From Gemmatimonadota bacterium (GTDB lineage: Bacteria > JAAXHH01): 64,000 bases of DNA. The stretch covers positions 47,828 to 111,827 of the forward strand of contig JAPOYX010000198.1 of the NCBI GenBank assembly GCA_026706345.1, written 5' to 3'. Position numbers and translations under genes: made by a program. Below, piece by piece: positions 42,120 through 51,858 of this stretch. Each line of letters starts with the position of its first letter. Positions within the stretch are counted from its first letter, which is position 1. The notes under the pieces are model-generated. The model saw only the letters and a list, made by a program, of their open reading frames with translations. It ran no database searches and had not been told where the DNA came from.

Positions 42120-44486
42120 TTAATCGAACAACTTGTGGACGAAACGGGTTCTCAGCGCCCTGGCCGCCCATTCCATGTTTCGTTCAATGTCCCGCCACAA
42201 CTGTTCGCCCGGTCCGGTGCCGTTTCCTTCCTCATAACCCAGACGACGGGCGAGAAACAGGAACTCCTGGGACGTCTTGTCCGGAAGGACCAGGTCCCTG
42301 GCGTTGCCGCGCACCATGCGCAGCGCGTTGATCAGCCTGACCAGGAAACGATACGCCGTGCCGAGCATGTCATGCTCCTCGTCCGAAAGGTAACCGGCCC
42401 CGTTCAGCGCTTCCATGGCCTCCAGCGTAGTCGGTCCGCGAACCGCCGAATTGCCGACGCCGTAGCGAATCTGCAGATCCTGTACGAAGTACTCGATGTC
42501 GATCAACCCGCCGTAACTGTATTTGACGTTGATGGCGCCGGTTTCGACCAATTCATCGTTCTGCCGTTCGCGCAGATGGGTCCATGAACGGCCGTCGACC
42601 GGGGCGTCGGCGTACACGAAGGCATCGCGGGCGGCCTCGACGTTCGCACCCAGGACCGGATCGCCCCCGATGGCGCGCAGCTTGATCAGCGCATGGCGCT
42701 CGTAGGGCAGGGCGCCGCCCTTTTCGTTGAAATACGCGTTGAACTTCTCGAGCGACGAGGCCAGCGCGCCCTTTTCGCCGTAGGGCCGAAGCCGGAGGTC
42801 GATTTCGAACAGGCCTTCTCTCCGGGATTCGATGGTGCCGCAGATCATGCGCACGAGCCGCTCGTAGTACTCCGAATTCAACACGGTCTGGGGGCCGCTC
42901 GTACTGCCCTGTCCGGCGTAGACGAACAGCAGTTCCATGTCGGATGCCCAGCCCAGTTCCCTGCCGCCGCATTTCCCCAGCGCACAGATACTGAAAACGC
43001 AGGGCGCGCCGGAGGGCAGCAGCGGCGCGCCGTATTGCCGGCGCTGCTCCCGGTCGCAGATATCGTACGCCGATTCCAGGATCACCTCGGCCAGCGTGGT
43101 GAGCTCACGGGAAAAGGCCTGGATGTCTTCGTGCTGCTCCAGGATCTCGCGCATGCTGATCCGCAGCATCTCCTTATCCTTGTAACGGTTCAGCAACTCC
43201 TTGCGGCGGGCGTAGCTTCCGACCCTGGACAACCGTGCGCCCAGTTCGCCTTCCATCTGCTCCCGCGATCTGACGATTCCGACCACCTTGATGTCCTGCA
43301 GCACGGGGAAGAGGTTCTTGTACTGCATCCTGAGGAAGTCTTTCCACAGGAAATCGCTTGTGCCGAAGAGCTTTGCCATCGCGGCGATTACTTCCTGCTT
43401 CTCCAGCTGGTCGAACATCTCTTCCATCGCCCGGCCGGGCCGGACGTTGGCCAGGACCTGGTCGATCAACTGGTTGAAATGTTCCAGGGCCTGGGCGGGA
43501 TTTGGCGCCCGGGTCAGCAGGTGGGTAAACTGCTTGATGAGCGCGATGACGAATCGCAGTTCCTGGAGTTTCCGCGGATCGGTGATCTTCGCTCCGCGCC
43601 GGTCGGTCACCTCGAGCGTATCCTGTACCTGGACTCCGGCGGCCGCGATATCGATGCGTCGAATGTTGATGTTACGCAGCGCCAGGGCGGTCGACAGGGC
43701 GTACAGAAACGCCGGCGTGTCCTGGCCCGTGATGCCGAGACGGGTCGCCCCGGACCCGGTGTCGTTGTCGATCGTCACATGCACCGGGAACATGGAGGAG
43801 GTCTCCGCTTCCTGCTCGCGACGGAGGTAGTCCACGACGCGCTCGTTGATCCTTCGCTGCAATGCGCCGGCGCTGTCCATGCGCAGACGGCGCATGGCGT
43901 CCTTGATTTCCAGCGTTATGGCGGGCCAGTCCGGCGGCTCCTCCGACGGCGCGTGCACCCGGAAGACATCCACGATCTTTCGCCGGGAACGCAGCGACGA
44001 CGAGGTGATGCCCGGCGGCGCGGCCGGAGTGCCCGAGCGAACACGGCGGCGACGTTGAAGCCGGGAGGACCGCTTGCCCGGATCGCCGGCCGGTTCCGCG
44101 TCGGCGTAGGTGAATACGTCCCCGCGGCGTATGCTCAGTCCGTTGGACGCCAGGAGTCCCGACAGGATGGAAATCACCGAGAGGTAATCGAAGGCCACGA
44201 CGGTAAGGCGCCACGTCGAATCGTCCAGGGGCTCCACGTCGACCTCCGCGGCGTTGTCCGGTCCAAGCCGGCTGATCATCCCGATGTGGCGCCGGATCAC
44301 TTCGGGCTCGTATCGCTCGAAATAGGCCGGCGCCATCCTGCCGATATGATCCCTGACCAGGATATCCGGCAAGTCATTGCCCTTGAGTTGTTCCGAAAGT
44401 TCCGCGAAAGGTACCGTATTCGTCATGCTCTGGTTCCGGGGTGGTTTGGCGGGACACAAAACTCCTAAGATACAAGATACATTCAA
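42120..44486 (-). CDS. GlnE-family nucleotidyltransferase (glutamine-synthetase adenylyltransferase-like), single catalytic module with an N-terminal ACT-like region.
   Basis: The nucleotidyltransferase motif ICALGKCGGRELGWASDMELLFVY matches the GlnE signature GKLGGxEL...SDxDLxF. A GlnE-type C-terminal helical domain is present. The N-terminal 120 aa resemble an ACT fold (RLTVVAFDYLSVISILSGLLASNG). At 788 aa it is shorter than two-module GlnE. Confidence 0.55.
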   Translation of the reverse strand: MNVSCILGVLCPAKPPRNQSMTNTVPFAELSEQLKGNDLPDILVRDHIGRMAPAYFERYEPEVIRRHIGMISRLGPDNAAEVDVEPLDDSTWRLTVVAFDYLSVISILSGLLASNGLSIRRGDVFTYADAEPAGDPGKRSSRLQRRRRVRSGTPAAPPGITSSSLRSRRKIVDVFRVHAPSEEPPDWPAITLEIKDAMRRLRMDSAGALQRRINERVVDYLRREQEAETSSMFPVHVTIDNDTGSGATRLGITGQDTPAFLYALSTALALRNINIRRIDIAAAGVQVQDTLEVTDRRGAKITDPRKLQELRFVIALIKQFTHLLTRAPNPAQALEHFNQLIDQVLANVRPGRAMEEMFDQLEKQEVIAAMAKLFGTSDFLWKDFLRMQYKNLFPVLQDIKVVGIVRSREQMEGELGARLSRVGSYARRKELLNRYKDKEMLRISMREILEQHEDIQAFSRELTTLAEVILESAYDICDREQRRQYGAPLLPSGAPCVFSICALGKCGGRELGWASDMELLFVYAGQGSTSGPQTVLNSEYYERLVRMICGTIESRREGLFEIDLRLRPYGEKGALASSLEKFNAYFNEKGGALPYERHALIKLRAIGGDPVLGANVEAARDAFVYADAPVDGRSWTHLRERQNDELVETGAINVKYSYGGLIDIEYFVQDLQIRYGVGNSAVRGPTTLEAMEALNGAGYLSDEEHDMLGTAYRFLVRLINALRMVRGNARDLVLPDKTSQEFLFLARRLGYEEGNGTGPGEQLWRDIERNMEWAARALRTRFVHKLFD

Positions 44487-44609: not shown

Positions 44610-44647
44610 CGAAGCCATGTTTGAATAGCCAAACTTTTCATTGTGCC

Positions 44648-44665
44648 GGCAACACGATTGTTGCC
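44648..44665. promoter_or_regulatory. Perfect inverted repeat GGCAACA-cgat-TGTTGCC between the promoter and the repressor start codon. It is a candidate operator or RNA hairpin.
   Basis: The 7-bp arms are exact reverse complements. It lies 18 bp upstream of the ATG at 44683. A second inverted repeat, GTTTGaatagcCAAAC, lies at 44620-44635. Confidence 0.35.
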
Positions 44666-44682
44666 ATAACGAATCGGACAAA

Positions 44683-45216
44683 ATGATGGATGTCTGGAGA
44701 GAATTCGAGCACAACGAGATCACGCACAGCGGCGCGCACTACCTGATGACGGTGCAGCAGCTGATCGAGGACCAGGGATACGCCCGGGTATCGGACGTGG
44801 CCCGGGAGATGCATATCACGCCGGGCAGTGCGTCGATCATGATCAAGTCGCTCCGGGAAAAGGGATACCTGGAAGAGGACCGGAACCGGTTCCTCAAACT
44901 CTCGGAGGAAGGGAACCGGCTGGCGCAGTCGGTATGGTCGCACCGGCAGATCCTCATCGCCTTTCTCAAGGGCGTCCTGCATATCGACGCGGAACAGGCG
45001 GAAATCGACGCGTGCAAGATCGAGCACCTAATCAGCACGACGACCGGAGAGCGGCTGCTGCTCTTCCTGCAGTTCCTCCTGTCGGACGATCCCCACGGCA
45101 GGGCGTTTCTCAAGTCCTACTGGGACGCCAACGTGCTGTCGATCTGCGACTTCGAAACCTGCGCGGTTTGCGAGGAAGTGGGCGAATGCCTGGTTATCCG
45201 ATCGGAGTCGGCGTGA
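44683..45216 (+). CDS. DtxR/MntR-family metal-dependent transcriptional repressor with an unusual Cys-rich C-terminal tail.
   Basis: N-terminal wHTH (YLMTVQQLIEDQGYARVSDVAREMHITPGSASIMIKSLREKGYL) and a DtxR dimerisation/metal-binding region. The C-terminus CDFETCAVCEEVGEC has 4 Cys and replaces the usual SH3-like domain. ATG at 44683 is preferred over the TTG at 44641 in the ORF track. Confidence 0.8.
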   Translation: MMDVWREFEHNEITHSGAHYLMTVQQLIEDQGYARVSDVAREMHITPGSASIMIKSLREKGYLEEDRNRFLKLSEEGNRLAQSVWSHRQILIAFLKGVLHIDAEQAEIDACKIEHLISTTTGERLLLFLQFLLSDDPHGRAFLKSYWDANVLSICDFETCAVCEEVGECLVIRSESA

Positions 45217-45274
45217 GGGACGTGGAAGCATTCGGTATCCTGACGGCGGGACACGCGCCGTCAGAAAACAAAAA

Positions 45275-45316
45275 GGGACTATCGCGACATGGCCCGGCAA
45301 GCCCGGCGATAGTCCC
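45275..45316. repeat. REP-like hairpin element, copy 1: GGGACTATCG, 22 bp spacer, CGATAGTCCC.
   Basis: A 10-bp perfect inverted repeat at 45275-45284 and 45307-45316 is preceded by AAAAAG. It lies 59 bp after the DtxR-like stop. A second hairpin TGACGGCG...CGCCGTCA lies at 45241-45263. Confidence 0.5.
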
Positions 45317-45513
45317 TGGCAGGACAGGTATAACTGTCCCTGAGGGCGGTACGGACGTACGCGACCCTCTTATTCTATAGTATAAGGAAACCGCCATGAC
45401 GGGTCAATACTATAACGGGTCGATTCCGACGAAAGGGGATACTGCCTATCCGAAAAACACCTTTCAGTTCCGTAGCGAGTACCGGCATCGGACCTTCTGA
45501 CGCGAGATAACCC

Positions 45514-45780
45514 ATGCATTCCGAACTCTTTACCACCAGCACGCAAGCAAAGACTATTCGCCTGGATGAGCTGAAATCGGGCGAGAAGGCAACGATAAGG
45601 CAGATCAAGGGCACGGCGGGAGAAGAAGTACACCTGATGGAACTTGGGCTGCTCCCCGGGACAACCGTCGAATTGATCAAACGCGCACCCATGGGCGATC
45701 CGATCGAGATACGCGTTCGGAGTTACCACCTGTCCATTCGCTGCGCGGAGGCCCGTTCGGTCATGGTGGAAAGAAGTTGA
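45514..45780 (+). CDS. feoA: Ferrous iron transport protein A.
   Basis: 88 aa with an SH3-like FeoA signature (LDELKSGEKATIRQI...GLLPGTTVELIKRAPMGDPIEIRV). Confidence 0.8.
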   Translation: MHSELFTTSTQAKTIRLDELKSGEKATIRQIKGTAGEEVHLMELGLLPGTTVELIKRAPMGDPIEIRVRSYHLSIRCAEARSVMVERS

Positions 45781-45798
45781 ACTAAAGGGTAGAAAAAA

Positions 45799-45837
45799 GG
45801 ACTATCGGTTCGGCTGGCCGGCTCTCCCCGATAGTCC
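45799..45837. repeat. REP-like hairpin element, copy 2: GGACTATCGG, 19 bp spacer, CCGATAGTCC.
   Basis: It has the same arm sequence as copy 1 (core GACTATCG / CGATAGTC). It is preceded by AAAAAAGG and lies 19 bp after the feoA stop. The loop is related (GGCCGGC versus GGCCCGGC). Confidence 0.5.
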
Positions 45838-45948
45838 TTGGACCAGGGGGATACGTACACTTGGCGAGTACAATCCGGTCCCGGCCTGTTTTGAAATATA
45901 CGCCCCCTGGCGGCCGCTGTCAATTCCACAGGTTTACCCGGGGGCTAA

Positions 45949-47154
45949 ATGCTTCGTAAAACTATCTTCTGGATCCATCTCTCGTCGGGCGTAATCGCCG
46001 GCATTGTCATTCTGATCATGTCGGTGACCGGCGTGCTGCTCACCTTCCAGAGCCAGATCGTCGACTTCGCCAACCGGGAATACGCCACGGTCCATCCTCC
46101 CCATCCCCGTGCCGAGCGCATGGATCTAGACGTGGTGCTCGCGGCGGTCCGGAGCATCGAGCCCGAGGCGGAGCCCACCTCCGTCACCATACGTCCCGAT
46201 CCGACCGAGGCGTACGTCGTGCGATACGGTCGTGCGAAAACCGTCTTCGTCGACCCCTATTCAGGGGATGTCCGGGGCGAAGGCAATATCGCCGTCCGTA
46301 ATTTCCTCCGGGAAATCATGTACTGGCACCGCTGGTTCGGCGCGGAAGGCGAAAACAGGGCGGTCGCCCGCGCGGTCACAGGCGCCTGCAACCTGGCGTT
46401 CTGCCTGCTGACCATCACGGGGCTGTACATCTGGTGGCCCCGCAAGTGGACCCTGGCGGCGTTCAAGGCCGTCTTTGTCCCGAACTTCAAGACGCGCGGA
46501 AAGAGCCGGGATTTCAACTGGCACAATTCCTTCGGCATCTGGTGCCTTCCAGCCCTTTTCCTGATCTCGCTGAGCGGGGTGGTCATCTCCTATCGTTGGG
46601 CCGGTGACCTGGTCTACGCGCTCACGGGTACGGAACCCCCTCAACGGGCTGTGCAATCCGCATCGGAACCGGCAACGCCCGGGGACGAATCCGCACCGTT
46701 GCCAGCCGCTCCCTCCGAATCCTTTCTGGCCGCGGCACGAAAGCAGGTGCCGGAATGGGCGTACATCACGCTGAACCTGCCGAAGGAAGGCGCGGAAACC
46801 ACCACGCTGAACGTATCTGAAATGGATAACCGCATACCGCTGACCCGCTCCACCCTTACCGTGTCCACGACAGATGCAGGGATAGTCGAATGGGTACCTT
46901 TCACCAGCCTGAACATGGGACGACAGATCCGCACCTGGCTGCGTTGGATCCATACGGGTGAAGCGGCAGGATGGTTCGGCCAGCTCATCGCGGGCGTGGC
47001 CTCCGCCGGAGGCGTGGTCCTGGTCTGGACGGGGCTCTCGTTGGCATGGAGACGTTTCCGAAGATTCAACAAAACACGGCAAGACAGGACATTCACGACA
47101 AAGGATATACCAGGAGAATCCGATGAAGAACCAAAGCTTGCTCGCACAGGATGA
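45949..47154 (+). CDS. PepSY-associated TM-helix protein (PiuB/FoxB-like putative ferric-siderophore reductase).
   Basis: MLRKTIFWIHLSSGVIAGIVILIMSVTGVLLTF is the hallmark PepSY_TM N-terminus. It has 4 TM segments with conserved His, and is 401 aa long. Confidence 0.75.
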   Translation: MLRKTIFWIHLSSGVIAGIVILIMSVTGVLLTFQSQIVDFANREYATVHPPHPRAERMDLDVVLAAVRSIEPEAEPTSVTIRPDPTEAYVVRYGRAKTVFVDPYSGDVRGEGNIAVRNFLREIMYWHRWFGAEGENRAVARAVTGACNLAFCLLTITGLYIWWPRKWTLAAFKAVFVPNFKTRGKSRDFNWHNSFGIWCLPALFLISLSGVVISYRWAGDLVYALTGTEPPQRAVQSASEPATPGDESAPLPAAPSESFLAAARKQVPEWAYITLNLPKEGAETTTLNVSEMDNRIPLTRSTLTVSTTDAGIVEWVPFTSLNMGRQIRTWLRWIHTGEAAGWFGQLIAGVASAGGVVLVWTGLSLAWRRFRRFNKTRQDRTFTTKDIPGESDEEPKLARTG

Positions 47155-47524
47155 GGAAAACCAGACGCGGGTGTATTCGTGCCATTCCGGGCATATCCAC
47201 GTCATCTACCGGCGCATCAATATCGCCCTGTCGACGGGTGAATTCCGCGAACTCCTGGACTGCGTCGTACAGACCTTCGAGTACATTCAGAAACAAAGCC
47301 CGGAGCGTATGGAATCGAAACACATCGACGTGACGTTCGACGACACGGTCGTAAAAATGCCCCTGCCCGGCTTCAGGACGTTCGTACAAGTCCTCAGACG
47401 GGCGATGACCAGTTTCCAGAGACTATCGGGTGTATACAACAAGCCCTCCGGAGTGGAAGCGGAATACATAGCCAACGGCAAGCTCATTCCGTTTGCACCC
47501 TGCAGGTACAACCAATTGAATTGA
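47123..47524 (+). CDS. Hypothetical protein of 133 aa between the PepSY-TM gene and feoB.
   Basis: The ATG at 47123 overlaps the upstream gene by 32 bp. This stretch is markedly lower in GC (about 52%) than the window average. The ORF is clean, contains a CHSGH segment, and I could not assign a family. Confidence 0.45.
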   Translation: MKNQSLLAQDEENQTRVYSCHSGHIHVIYRRINIALSTGEFRELLDCVVQTFEYIQKQSPERMESKHIDVTFDDTVVKMPLPGFRTFVQVLRRAMTSFQRLSGVYNKPSGVEAEYIANGKLIPFAPCRYNQLN

Positions 47525-47642
47525 CTGGTCGGCCTGGAAAGCCTGCCCGCATCGCTTTTTATTCCCTTTTAGCATGTATTGCGTTATATTTGGTCTGATC
47601 CGGGCGTGACGGTTTCCCGGTCCTATAGCGACACCGTTTCCA

Positions 47643-49903
47643 TGCCAGAACGCTCCATGGACATGACCGAAACTACCGATACATTCACGGCGCGTGAATC
47701 CGCGTTCGACGTACTCCTCGTCGGCAACCCGAATACCGGCAAGACGTCCGTATTCAATTCTCTGACCGGGCTCCGGCAGAAAACGGGCAACTATCCCGGC
47801 GTGACCGTGGAGAAGAAGACGGGCATCGTGGCGGGGCCGGACGGCGGCACGCTTCGTCTCCACGACATGCCCGGAATGTACAGCCTTACCCCGAAGTCTC
47901 TCGACGATTCCATCGCACGGGAGGTGCTGATCGGGGAAGCGGACGAGAACCTGGACATCCGGCTCATCGTGGTTGTTGCGGACGCCTCGAATCTCAACAG
48001 GAACCTCTACCTGGTTACCCAGCTCATCGACCTCGGCATCCCCGTCGCCGTGGCCATGAACATGATGGACAACGCCGTCAGCAGCGGCGTCCACATCGAT
48101 CTGGACGCACTCTCCGATCAACTGAAGGTCCCGATCGTACCCGTAATCGCTTCACGTCAACAGGGAATAGACGAGTTGCGACAGATGATGTTCGACCAGA
48201 TCGGTCCGGGGGGATCGGAAACGCGGCCAGCCGGATCGCCGGAAGAGGCTGCGCAGGGATCGATCGGACCCGCCTCGGGTCCGGCCAGGGTTTCTTTCGC
48301 CGAACGGTTTCCGCGGCGGCGTCTGCTGGGCGGCCTGCTCGACGAAGCGCTCTCTCCCGCTGCGGCCTGGTTCGGAGCACACACGAAACTGAACGAGGTA
48401 GCGCAGACTTCGGAAGCACTGCGGGTGACTTCGAGCGACCAGGCGCTGCAGACGTGGATGGAAGGCCGCCAGGACGCCTCCTGCAGAGACGACCTGAAAC
48501 GCATCGTGGAGCAGGTGCGGGGCAGGCTGGACGAGATACAGGTGCCCTGGCGGATGCTGGAGACCATTCTGCGGTATGACCAGATCGACGAGCTCTATTC
48601 CAAGGTCGTGCGGGAGGAACGAGATACCCAGGCCAGGCCAAGCGTCCGGCTGGACCGCGTGTTCACCCACCGGGTGGCCGGCCCCGCCATCGTACTGATC
48701 GTGTTCGCACTGGTCTTCCAGTCCATCTTCTCCTGGGCAGAAACGCCCATGACGCTCATCGAGGACGGAGTCGGCGCCCTGGGCGCCTTCGTCTACCAGT
48801 TTCTGCCGGAAGGCCTGTTGCGCAACCTGCTCGTGGACGGCGTCATTGCCGGGGTGGGCGCCGTGCTGGTCTTTCTCCCCCAGATCCTCTTTCTCTTCTT
48901 CTTCCTGGCTCTGCTCGAAGATACGGGCTACATGGCCCGCGTAGCCTTTATCATGGACCGTTTCATGAAGAGCATGGGACTGTCGGGCCATTCGGTCATG
49001 CCGCTGCTTTCGTCCTTTGCCTGCGCGATACCGGGCATCATGGCGACGCGGACGATCTCGAACTGGAAGGACCGCCTGATCACGATCATGATCGCGCCGC
49101 TGATGAGCTGCAGCGCCCGCCTGCCCGTATACATCCTGCTGATCGGCGCCTTCTTCCCGTCCATGACGATTTTGGGCGTATTCACGCTGCAGGGCCTCAT
49201 GCTGTTCACCATGTACATCTTCGGGATTGTCGTCGCTATCGCCGCGGCGCTGGTGTTCAAGCGGTTTTTCATGAGGGACGCCGTTCCCACGAGTTTCGTC
49301 ATGGAACTGCCGCCCTACCGGCTGCCCTCCCTCAAGTGGGTTTTGCTGCAAATGTTCGAACGGGCGAAGGTCTTCGTGACGGAGGCGGGCCAGATCATAC
49401 TGGCCATATCGGTCGTCCTCTGGTTCCTCGCCTCGTACCCGCAACCCGACGACTACGATACCATGTCGTCCAGGTCGCGCATACAACAGAGTTACGCCGG
49501 CCAGCTCGGCCAGCTGATCGAACCGGCCATCGAGCCCCTCGGGTTCGACTGGAAGGTGGGTATCGGCCTCATCACGTCCTTCGTCGCCAGGGAAGTGCTG
49601 GTCAGCACCATGGCCACGATCTACAACGTGGAGGAGGCCGACGAGACCTCGGTCGATCTCCGAACGTCGCTCCAGAACGAGGTGGATCCGGAAACGGGCG
49701 AGCGGGTATACACACCGCTTGTGGCGGTCGCCCTCATGGTGTTCTTCGCCCTGGCCTGCCAGTGCATGGCCACGGTCGCCATCGTGAAGCGGGAGACCAG
49801 CAGTTGGCGATGGCCCATCGTCATGATCGCGTACATGACCGCCCTGGCCTATATCGGATCTTTCGTTGTCTACCAGGGAGGATTGCTCCTGGGATACGGG
49901 TAG
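47643..49903 (+). CDS. feoB: Ferrous iron transport protein B.
   Basis: G-domain motifs VLLVGNPNTGKTSVFN (G1) and NMMD (G4). A GDI/helical domain follows, then the polytopic membrane domain with gate motifs. Length is about 753 aa. Confidence 0.9.
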
Positions 49904-49953: not shown

Positions 49954-50145
49954 ATGGATCTTCAAACCCTGATCGTTGCCATAACCGTTGGAATCGCGGC
50001 CGCGTTTGTCGTTCGCACCTTCACGCGGCAGTTCACGTCCCGGGGCCGGAAGGGATGCGCAAGCTGCAGCCACGGCGGCTCGGGCGGCCAGCCAGGCGCA
50101 TCGCGGGATGGCGATCTGATACAGGTGGAATCGATCCGGGAATAG
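49954..50145 (+). CDS. FeoB-associated Cys-rich membrane peptide.
   Basis: 63 aa. An N-terminal TM helix (LIVAITVGIAAAFVV) is followed by CASCSHGG. It sits immediately after feoB. The family assignment is from memory. Confidence 0.55.
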   Translation: MDLQTLIVAITVGIAAAFVVRTFTRQFTSRGRKGCASCSHGGSGGQPGASRDGDLIQVESIRE

Positions 50146-50180
50146 CTTCAGTCCACAAACGCAGATCGACACCAGACCAC

Positions 50181-50747
50181 ATGTCCGTACTCGATACAAT
50201 CCGGAACAGACGGTCGATTTACGAATTCAGGACGGAACCGGTCCCCCGGGAAGTGATCGCCCGTGTGCTCGAAACGGCCGTGTGGGCGCCGAACCACAAG
50301 CTGACGGAACCCTGGCGCTTCCTGGTCGTCACGGGGAAGACCAAGGAGGCCCTGGCGACCATCTACTGCAAGATCCAGCGTGAAAAAACGAAGTCGGACG
50401 ACTCCGGTATCCTGCGGAAGGCCACTGAAAAGGGTTATGCCAAGATCATGTCCAAGCCCGCCGTCATCGGCGTGGTCTGCAAGAAGGACGAGGACGCCTT
50501 CCGCGCGCGCGAGGACTATGCCGCCACCTGCTGCGCTATTCACAACATCGCGCTGGCCGCCTGGGAAGAGGGCATCGGCATGCAGTGGAGCACGGGAGGG
50601 CTTATCCGGGATCCCGAGACGCTGGAACTGCTGAAAATCGATTCACGTGAAGAAGAAATCATCGGATTCCTCTACACAGGTTATCCGGCGCAGGTCCCCG
50701 CCCAGAAAAGAATACCCGCCGCCGAACGAACCGAATGGTTCGGCTGA
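50181..50747 (+). CDS. Nitroreductase-family protein.
   Basis: MSVLDTIRNRRSIYEFR...PNHKLTEPWRFLVV are classic nitroreductase/FMN-binding motifs. Length is 188 aa. Confidence 0.75.
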   Translation: MSVLDTIRNRRSIYEFRTEPVPREVIARVLETAVWAPNHKLTEPWRFLVVTGKTKEALATIYCKIQREKTKSDDSGILRKATEKGYAKIMSKPAVIGVVCKKDEDAFRAREDYAATCCAIHNIALAAWEEGIGMQWSTGGLIRDPETLELLKIDSREEEIIGFLYTGYPAQVPAQKRIPAAERTEWFG

Positions 50748-50807
50748 CGCATCCATAGACTTCTTCCATAGGACAAATACGCAACCTCGAAACACCCTGG
50801 AGCCGCC

Positions 50808-51344
50808 ATGTCCGTAGTTTCCGAAGTTCGATTCGCATCGGGATTCCACTGGGAAGACTACATGCGGAACAGCGAGAAGAATCTCGAAAGGTTCAATGAA
50901 AATTACGAGAAAGCAAACCTGGATCCGGAGGATGCGCGGTTCCTCGCCTCCATCACGACGCCCTTGAAGGTGCTCATCCTCGCGGAGGACTGGTGCGGCG
51001 ACGTGGTGCAAAGCCTTCCACCCATCGTCCGCATGTTGGAGCAGAGCCCGGCCATCGCGTACCGGATCTTCCGCAGGGACGAGAACCTGGACATCATGGA
51101 CCGGTATCTCACTGACGGTTCCAGGGCCATTCCCTATCTCGTCTTTATGGACGACGGCCTGAACGAGGTGGCCCGGTGGGGACCACGCCCGGACGAATGC
51201 CAGGCGATCATGCGGGACAACAAGGGCAGGATCCCCATGGAAGACATCTACCCCCGCATCCGTTCCTGGTACAGGCAACACGGGAACGGCCCGCTCGTGA
51301 CGGAAATCCGGGGCGTCCTCGAACGAATCAAGCGGACCGCATGA
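50808..51344 (+). CDS. Thioredoxin-fold protein (monothiol, WCGDV motif).
   Basis: ILAEDWCGDVVQSLPPI sits in the thioredoxin active-site position but has only one Cys. Length is 178 aa. Confidence 0.55.
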   Translation: MSVVSEVRFASGFHWEDYMRNSEKNLERFNENYEKANLDPEDARFLASITTPLKVLILAEDWCGDVVQSLPPIVRMLEQSPAIAYRIFRRDENLDIMDRYLTDGSRAIPYLVFMDDGLNEVARWGPRPDECQAIMRDNKGRIPMEDIYPRIRSWYRQHGNGPLVTEIRGVLERIKRTA

Positions 51345-51351
51345 TCCTTCC

Positions 51352-51858
51352 ATGGCCGAAACCGTCACGGAAATCAAGCACAACACTGGCAAGCCCGACC
51401 AGTCCTTCTCGTGCCGCCTGCTCTACCACGGGGGCAGCCGCATGGTGATTTCCTACCGGTCCACCCGGGAATACCGGCAGGGGGACATCCGGATTCCCCC
51501 GGGCACGCTGACCCTGGCCTATTACGAAGAAGGACTGCCCCACATCCTGTGGAAGATGATCGGACCGGACGGAAGCCTCGTCGGGCACTACGTACACCTC
51601 TGCGACCGGGTACGGATCGGACCGGACCACGTTGAGTATGACGACCAGTTGCTTGACCTGTGGTTCTTTCCGGACGGCGGCTGCCGCGTGCTGGACGAGG
51701 ACGAACTGCGGCAGGCCGCTGACAACGGACTGATCGAACCTGATACGGCGGATCGCGTAAGGACAACTGCCGGGGATGTCGTGCGCCGTATCCACACGAT
51801 CACGGCGGATTTCGACGCGCTGCTCGACAGCCGCGGACTTGCTCAGCACGCCAGCTAG
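51352..51858 (+). CDS. DUF402-like protein.
   Basis: 168 aa. LDLWFFPDGGCRVLDEDELRQAADNGLI resembles the DUF402 core. The call comes from resemblance only. Confidence 0.45.
   Translation: MAETVTEIKHNTGKPDQSFSCRLLYHGGSRMVISYRSTREYRQGDIRIPPGTLTLAYYEEGLPHILWKMIGPDGSLVGHYVHLCDRVRIGPDHVEYDDQLLDLWFFPDGGCRVLDEDELRQAADNGLIEPDTADRVRTTAGDVVRRIHTITADFDALLDSRGLAQHAS

Follow-up and report, generated by a model that had tools for sequence, protein, structure and literature searches.

A small protein encoded between a PepSY_TM gene and feoB in Gemmatimonadota: a selected yet dispensable member of a rare family, and a possible accessory of reductive iron uptake

The iron-uptake locus described here lies in a 64,000-nucleotide (nt) stretch of DNA from a Gemmatimonadota bacterium (GenBank assembly GCA_026706345.1, contig JAPOYX010000198.1, positions 47,828 to 111,827 of the forward strand), the whole of which is called the window below, and the subject of this study is a small open reading frame (ORF), here named X, that sits between the gene for a PepSY_TM membrane protein and feoB. 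A first-pass annotation had described X as a clean ORF of 133 amino acids (aa) that overlaps the PepSY-TM gene upstream by 32 nt and precedes feoB, and both its coordinates and its sequence proved exact. The features of the locus, in window coordinates, are these:

44641..45216, plus strand, DtxR/MntR-family metal-dependent repressor gene, at the head of the locus
45514..45780, plus strand, feoA (PF04023, E 6.7e-21)
45949..47154, plus strand, PepSY_TM gene (401 aa; Pfam PF03929, E 1.6e-54)
47112..47117, plus strand, Shine-Dalgarno (SD) sequence AGGAGA, 5 nt before the ATG of X and within the PepSY_TM coding region
47123..47154, plus strand, dual-coding overlap of 32 nt (PepSY_TM 3' end ...EEPKLARTG*, X 5' end MKNQSLLAQDE)
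47123..47524, plus strand, ORF X, with an ATG start, a stop codon at 47522-47524 and 133 codons, its sequence exactly as first described
47554..47603, plus strand, conserved spacer block between X and feoB, GCTTTTTATTCCCTTTT..GCGTTATATT.GGTCTGATCCGG, with TTATATT
47657..49903, plus strand, feoB (TIGR00437, E 1.4e-156), its start MDMTETTDTF set by comparison with relatives

The gene order dtxR-feoA-pepSY_TM-X-feoB is supported as that of one operon with X embedded in it. The ORF called mechanically for feoB begins at 47579; relatives place the true start at about 47657 (MDMTETT...), and from that start a spacer of 132 nt separates the stop codon of X from feoB. The PepSY_TM protein has four transmembrane (TM) segments with a conserved histidine, in a W-x-H motif, beside each (H10, H127, H192, H335), an arrangement matching that of the di-haem ferric-siderophore reductase FoxB (FoxB preprint), and it is presumed to be a periplasmic Fe(III) reductase.

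Translational coupling of X to the gene upstream, proposed in the first-pass annotation, held across the relatives: the 32-nt overlap and an SD-like (A/G)GG(A/G)G motif were kept in 16/16 loci examined, and the ATG was retained in every intact copy of X. The invariant length of the overlap and the SD sequence of its own indicate that X is in all likelihood translationally coupled to pepSY_TM. Searching 5.8 billion proteins yielded 30 clusters, two of them fragments, with lengths of 130-136 aa and 65-100% identity to X, which confirmed its conservation outside the source genome, and the exact X sequence carries the label 'hypothetical protein' in a Gemmatimonadetes metagenome-assembled genome (MAG). 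Comparison of X with 13 orthologous loci by the Nei-Gojobori method gave ratios of non-synonymous to synonymous substitution (dN/dS) of 0.12-0.36 with dS running from 0.17 to 1.46, a clear sign, at the level of sequence, of purifying selection acting in the X frame. The view that the ORF is untranslated and owes its conservation to another overlapping feature has on its side only that mechanical opposite-strand ORFs exist, and is effectively refuted by these in-frame dN/dS values at dS as high as 1.46, by the elevated in-frame guanine-plus-cytosine (GC) content at third codon positions (GC3), by the conserved ATG and SD sequence, by a confident AlphaFold2 fold, by remote protein homologs and by the absence of an Rfam match. 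By these measures X is a genuine protein-coding gene.

The low GC content of X had also been remarked upon at first, and at 0.532 it is indeed the lowest of the operon genes; the value itself carries no meaning, since GC3 is normal (0.716, with neighbours at 0.65-0.82) and the low figure is due to amino-acid composition (GC at second codon positions 0.358). A foreign origin of X, which low GC might bring to mind, was ruled out on the same normal GC3.

The predicted protein has a mass of 15.4 kDa, an isoelectric point (pI) of 8.5 and a grand average of hydropathy of -0.39. Judged by hydropathy only and not by a signal-peptide predictor, it has neither a hydrophobic segment (maximum 19-residue Kyte-Doolittle value 0.69) nor an N-terminal hydrophobic stretch, and for this reason it is most likely cytoplasmic. 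A partial parallel is HiuC of Caulobacter, which like X is small, family-less and found beside a PepSY_TM reductase, and which has been proposed as a modulator needed for some substrates only; HiuC itself resides in the inner membrane, where it is predicted to pack against the PepSY-family reductase HiuB (PMC12424826). A membrane partner of this type was rejected for X, because the protein has no TM helix at the hydropathy maximum given above and, being soluble, would act from the cytoplasm.

The absence of a recognisable family, also noted at first, was borne out: Pfam, NCBIfam and PDB sequence searches with X alone, with all 28 family members and with their profile gave nothing at threshold. 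The one recurrent sequence signal was DUF1818 (PF08848), to which X scored 11.9 bits (E 0.24), below the 25-bit gathering cut-off, and to which 10 of the 28 members gave weak sub-threshold matches (best E 0.0058). A HMMER profile search of 1.84 billion representative proteins, reporting E <= 1e-3, gave nine matches in total, namely two proteins of the core family of close relatives, P0031, P0032 and five remote relatives, each a single cluster, of 122-147 aa (P0033-P0037). Of these, P0031 is a repeat protein of 956 aa whose match we discarded as an artefact amplified by its repeats, and P0032 is a 43-aa truncation remnant of X. When the core family was aligned to P0033-P0036 with hhalign, a probability of 99.1% was obtained (E 8e-19, 93 columns), and we regard these four as true homologs of X at about 25% identity. 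A word-indexed search with a mixed alignment, together with scans of genome contigs and metagenome contigs, added only L030, a near-duplicate of P0035, and P0037 had no relatives in the database searched. Sub-threshold matches to DUF6686 (PF20391) were found in P0035 (E 0.02) and P0037 (E 8e-4); that profile matched neither X nor the core family, and DUF6686 went unmentioned in the papers covered by a literature search. With about 30 close clusters and four to five remote singletons, the X family is, on the evidence of these searches, undescribed and very rare. The MAG names alone (APA_bin, IRC1_bin, RHO3_bin, PetF) suggest that the core-family hosts are marine-sponge symbionts.

The genomic surroundings of the remote relatives gave a link to iron that is independent of the core family. 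On three independent contigs the gene for P0033 precedes, by 56 nt, a PepSY_TM gene other than that of the window (PF03929, E 5.9e-44), so that two superfamily members adjoin PepSY_TM genes, and P0036 is flanked by an HmuY-like gene (E ~6e-6; against a cut-off of 27 bits it scored exactly 27.0 in L028 and a little less, 26.5, in L027) and by a gene for the long-chain flavodoxin FldA (TIGR01752, E 2.5e-61). P0034 lies downstream of genes for a TonB-dependent receptor and a DUF4856 protein and overlaps by 4 nt the start of a gene for a polytopic membrane protein (L025 5500..6621, at least 374 aa), which matched no Pfam or NCBIfam family and which may be another type of membrane partner for the X family. 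The distant two-repeat relative P0037 lies in a glycosyltransferase/methyltransferase cluster, and no usable surroundings were obtained for P0035. Of the four full-length remote relatives that have some context, three thus belong to loci for the acquisition of iron or haem, and do so in unrelated genomes, which independently supports a functional link of X to iron uptake.

These contexts bear on two alternatives. The first, which we regard as distinctly unlikely, is that X is a lineage-specific gene unrelated to iron that was captured in the operon, for example one for a small protein of the stress or immunity type. The family's extremely small size and patchy distribution, the repeated loss of the gene and the place of P0037 among glycosyltransferases and methyltransferases would all suit such a passenger; it would not account for the iron and haem loci of the remote relatives, nor for a coupling to pepSY_TM that is strictly conserved in a gene under clear purifying selection. 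The suggestion that X is a real and functionally linked accessory component stands on selection and on the remote relatives, and the argument from its position in the operon is weak, the core-family genomes being close relatives.

The second alternative concerns FeoC, of which X had been suggested to be a relative. As a matter of homology this failed: at E <= 1 neither X nor any of the 28 family members matched the FeoC profile PF09012, no NCBIfam match was obtained, the fold predicted for X (beta4-alpha-beta2-alpha) is not a winged helix, and the gene is in a different position. In Gammaproteobacteria FeoC, a small cytoplasmic accessory of Feo, is a winged-helix protein whose gene lies downstream of feoB (see also PMC8749426), whereas X is encoded upstream of feoB and coupled to pepSY_TM. 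The two are alike in being small, soluble, encoded in a feo operon, cysteine-containing and dispensable or absent in many lineages, and X could by analogy bind the N-terminal G-domain region of FeoB, alone or with FeoA, and stabilise or gate it, its cysteine and histidine residues perhaps making X responsive to iron or redox state. For this speaks the place of X directly upstream of feoB in an operon where FeoC was not found, along with its size, solubility and conserved Cys and His, and FeoC is itself poorly conserved and restricted in distribution (PMC8749426). With no likeness to FeoC in sequence or fold, coupling to pepSY_TM and a 132-nt spacer before feoB, such a role seems improbable to us, the more so as feoB adjoins none of the remote relatives with context. 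Homologs next to feoB in other genomes occurred within the core family and nowhere among those relatives. The other first suggestion, a possible adaptor for the reductase, fits the contexts of the remote relatives better than a FeoC-like regulator does. X is not a FeoA either, as it has no match to the SH3-like domain PF04023 and the operon has a FeoA of its own (45514..45780). PepSY proteins, Gemmatimonadota and any extra accessory protein all go unmentioned in a survey of Feo evolution (PMC8749426).

Not foreseen in the first reading was that X is dispensable. Two species-level genomes carry a clean deletion of about 290 bp (L020 3602..3760 and L021 6001..6160), which corresponds to window positions 47264..47553 and joins codon 47 of X to the conserved block in the feoB leader; in L020 the X start codon has also been changed to CTG. 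In both genomes pepSY_TM and feoB are intact on either side of the deletion. The remnant P0032 has a second, different junction, after codon 24 of X, and by these junctions X has been lost at least twice in sister lineages. Frameshifts were seen in L007 (at about 5577) and L015 (at about 5757), where single events break pepSY_TM at residues ~250 and ~311 and X downstream is intact; L007 comes from an assembly of 5x coverage, and these frameshifts represent either assembly error or real decay.

The spacer block at 47554..47603 was kept exactly at the deletion junctions, and because of this it could be an internal feoB promoter, with TATATT as the -10 element, or a leader element. It scored under the threshold of a consensus promoter scan, and on its plus strand the X-feoB spacer yielded no Rfam family, terminator or consensus promoter.

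AlphaFold2, which the first-pass annotation had suggested running, was applied to an alignment of 28 sequences and gave a model (predicted local distance difference test score 75.7, predicted template modelling score 0.70) with residues 1-102 confident and the tail disordered. The core is made of four strands, a long helix, two strands and a second long helix. Three regions of the protein, and two stretches of codons within them, are referred to below:

Residues 1-102, core; residues 103-118, variable linker; residues 119-133, C-terminal peptide (KLIPFxPCRYxxLN)
47180..47200, plus strand, codons 20-26 (C-H-S-G-H-I-H), with C20, H24 and H26 on the beta2-beta3 hairpin
47477..47521, plus strand, codons 119-133, the conserved peptide, whose terminal Asn is invariant, remote relatives included

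Conservation by column was 0.86-0.96 in the core, 0.49 in the linker (103-118) and 0.85 in the peptide (119-133), a pattern which suggests a short motif on a tether; in the model of P0034 the equivalent peptide makes an extra beta-strand. Across the superfamily M1, L7, C20, H26, I34, A94 and the C-terminal Asn are invariant, position 24 being occupied by H, N or C. Hydrophobic and polar residues alternate in strands 2 and 3, from which we infer that R16, Y18, C20, H24 and H26 lie on the face of the sheet opposite the hydrophobic core, and the spatial adjacency of C20, H24 and H26 was judged from the register of the beta-hairpin alone. A cross-strand cysteine beside an H-x-H strand motif is a common geometry of metal sites.

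These observations underlie the reading that we tentatively favour, and whose standing we put somewhat short of probable: in the reductive uptake module formed by PepSY_TM and Feo, X would be an accessory subunit on the cytoplasmic side, where an exposed Cys/His site would take up a metal or cofactor and a tethered C-terminal peptide would dock it. The PepSY_TM protein would reduce Fe(III) outside and FeoAB would import the resulting Fe(II), while X, made together with PepSY_TM through translational coupling, would serve as a non-essential accessory in the cytoplasm. The exposed sheet face of its globular domain would display C20 and H24-x-H26 as a conserved Cys/His cluster, which may bind a metal or cofactor, most simply Fe(II), and the peptide on its flexible linker would dock X, either by adding a strand to its own sheet or by binding a membrane partner. 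So placed, X might sense or accept imported Fe(II), or might help to feed or gate the flow of electrons into the reductase. That X binds metal, which partner it has and in which direction it acts are all matters of inference, and we consider PepSY_TM a more likely partner than FeoB. A bolder version, which we think unlikely, would make X and its relatives a new metal- or cofactor-binding class on a PC4/PUR-like scaffold, acting as cytoplasmic entry or sensor subunits of PepSY_TM reductases of the FoxB/VciB type, docked through the C-terminal peptide and coupling cytoplasmic reductant or Fe(II) status to periplasmic reduction and Feo import.

Several points weigh against an accessory subunit of this kind. 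X is dispensable: its loss from at least two lineages in which feoB and pepSY_TM are intact shows that the reductase/Feo module works without it. The core-family genomes are all close relatives in which the entire neighbourhood is syntenic, and because of that relatedness core-family synteny is weak evidence. Context is known for just four remote relatives, and one of these, P0034, is coupled to a membrane protein other than PepSY_TM. C47, invariant in the core family only, probably faces the core, and a family-wide Cys2His2 site composed of C20, H24, H26 and C47 was rejected since H24 and C47 vary in the remote relatives; it is further disfavoured by the strand pattern, from which C47 would lie on the opposite side of the sheet. 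Lastly, the fold is of a kind best known for binding single-stranded DNA (ssDNA) or RNA (PMC7549692).

That fold gives rise to the main rival. The model reproducibly places X in a known fold class, PC4/PUR/Whirly-like (DUF1818-like), which has been reviewed (PMC7549692) and with which the sub-threshold DUF1818 matches agree. The predicted fold is the same three-dimensional fold as in 2it9 and 2nvn. These two structures, from Prochlorococcus (PMN2A_0962) and Synechococcus, we take to be members of the DUF1818 family, which is cyanobacterial, whereas X is from Gemmatimonadota, and identity between the two is 11-13%; to our knowledge DUF1818 has no iron-operon context. SsgB/SsgA-like proteins (3cm1) have no sequence similarity to X, and SsgB is an actinobacterial protein of cell division, unconnected with iron. 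The best structural neighbours of the X model include Pur-alpha repeat I-II and MRP1/2. A search for an internal beta-beta-alpha repeat in the sequence of X was insignificant (z = 1.5; 208/2000 shuffles); P0037, however, consists of two halves, each with HIH(L/V)..R.LR(I/L).L...EF, and aligns in register to both halves of X at 93% probability, and this repeat architecture supports a two-repeat origin.

X might accordingly be a regulator of the PUR/PC4/Whirly type that binds single-stranded RNA or ssDNA, comparable to BpuR of Borrelia, and tunes the feo operon post-transcriptionally, an explanation that we hold to be possible and somewhat doubtful. Besides the structural neighbours, which belong to a fold family that typically binds ssDNA or RNA (PMC7549692), it would make use of the exposed sheet face with its conserved R16, Y18, H24, H26, Y29 and R31 and of the basic pI, and it would find possible targets in the same operon, either the strongly conserved feoB leader block or two near-invariant elements resembling small RNAs (sRNAs) that are described below. 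X differs from PUR-alpha/PC4-like (Whirly-like) domains (3k44, 8cht, BpuR) in that its second repeat has two predicted strands only, and in having an invariant Cys/His pair and a tethered C-terminal peptide, and there is no significant sequence similarity to them.

The dtxR-feoA and feoA-pepSY_TM spacers were each found to hold one near-invariant element, minus-strand candidate sRNAs A and B:

45268..45407, minus strand, sRNA candidate A, with TTGACC-17-TATACT at 45407->45379 and a transcript of about 45372->45268
45791..45923, minus strand, sRNA candidate B, with TTGACA-17-TATATT at 45923->45895 and a transcript of about 45888->45791

Both have invariant sigma70-like -35 and -10 promoter elements and predicted structured transcripts of about 100-105 nt (minimum free energy -51.9 kcal/mol for A and -43.0 kcal/mol for B), each closing with the same 12-bp terminator stem (GGACTATCG...CGATAGTCC) and then a U-run. 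The 9-mer of the stem is exact for B in 17/17 related loci covering it and for A in 12 of those; the full units were aligned from 14 loci in the case of B and 10 in that of A. In both, conservation exceeds that of the coding DNA and the flanks are variable, as is the promoter spacer of A. The promoter spacer of B, CCAGGGGG (45895..45911, minus strand), is invariant, which is unusual, and is complementary to CCCCCUGG within the transcript (45846..45853), which suggests an extra constraint on it, for example a structure in the plus-strand operon mRNA or a protein-binding site. Neither candidate matched an Rfam family, no covariation was obtained since the elements are too conserved, and a crude RNAduplex scan of A and B against the operon leaders found nothing above random windows. 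From their sequences A and B look like two paralogous antisense sRNAs. In L008 (958..4380), and also in L013 and L017, a 3.4-kb insert splits dtxR and candidate A from feoA; it holds a gene for an ApbE flavin transferase (PF02424, E 2e-59) and two large ORFs without family, and so adds further extracytosolic-redox context and shows that candidate A travels with dtxR and not with feoA.

Beyond the operon, a 63-aa ORF just 3' of feoB (49954..50145, plus strand) encodes one TM helix followed by G-C-x-x-C and gave a sub-threshold match to PF12669, the FeoB-associated Cys-rich membrane protein family (E 8.5e-5, 23.2 bits, cut-off 27); a gene of 59 aa is called at the equivalent position in L004. 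Genes for a nitroreductase, a Thioredoxin_9 protein and a DUF402 protein lie downstream (50178..51858, plus strand) and one for a GlnE/GlnD-like nucleotidyltransferase upstream (42120..44486, minus strand), and these are syntenic in all core-family loci.

PepSY-like proteins have been described as transmembrane electron carriers for assimilatory iron reduction, of which about a thousand are fused to an NAD-binding domain, the electron donor for the rest being unknown (PMC8238504), and FoxB, FpvG, VciB and HiuB exemplify the PepSY_TM proteins, by now seen to be widespread ferric reductases of the inner membrane. The parts of known kind in this locus are Feo, the presumed PepSY_TM reductase and the DtxR-family repressor, and what is new is the X family, on a known fold class. 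The finding is bounded by the confinement of that family to a few uncultured lineages, apparently sponge-associated Gemmatimonadota by their MAG names, and by the dispensability of X in nature. In this operon feoA, the gene of a PepSY_TM reductase and feoB are physically linked, and between the latter two is encoded a coupled, selected and soluble Cys/His protein. If X is a true cytoplasmic partner, it would provide a concrete candidate and a testable model for how electrons are supplied to the cytoplasmic haem of PepSY_TM proteins and how their reducing activity is matched to the import of Fe(II), and it would add a role outside nucleic-acid binding to the PC4/PUR-like fold.

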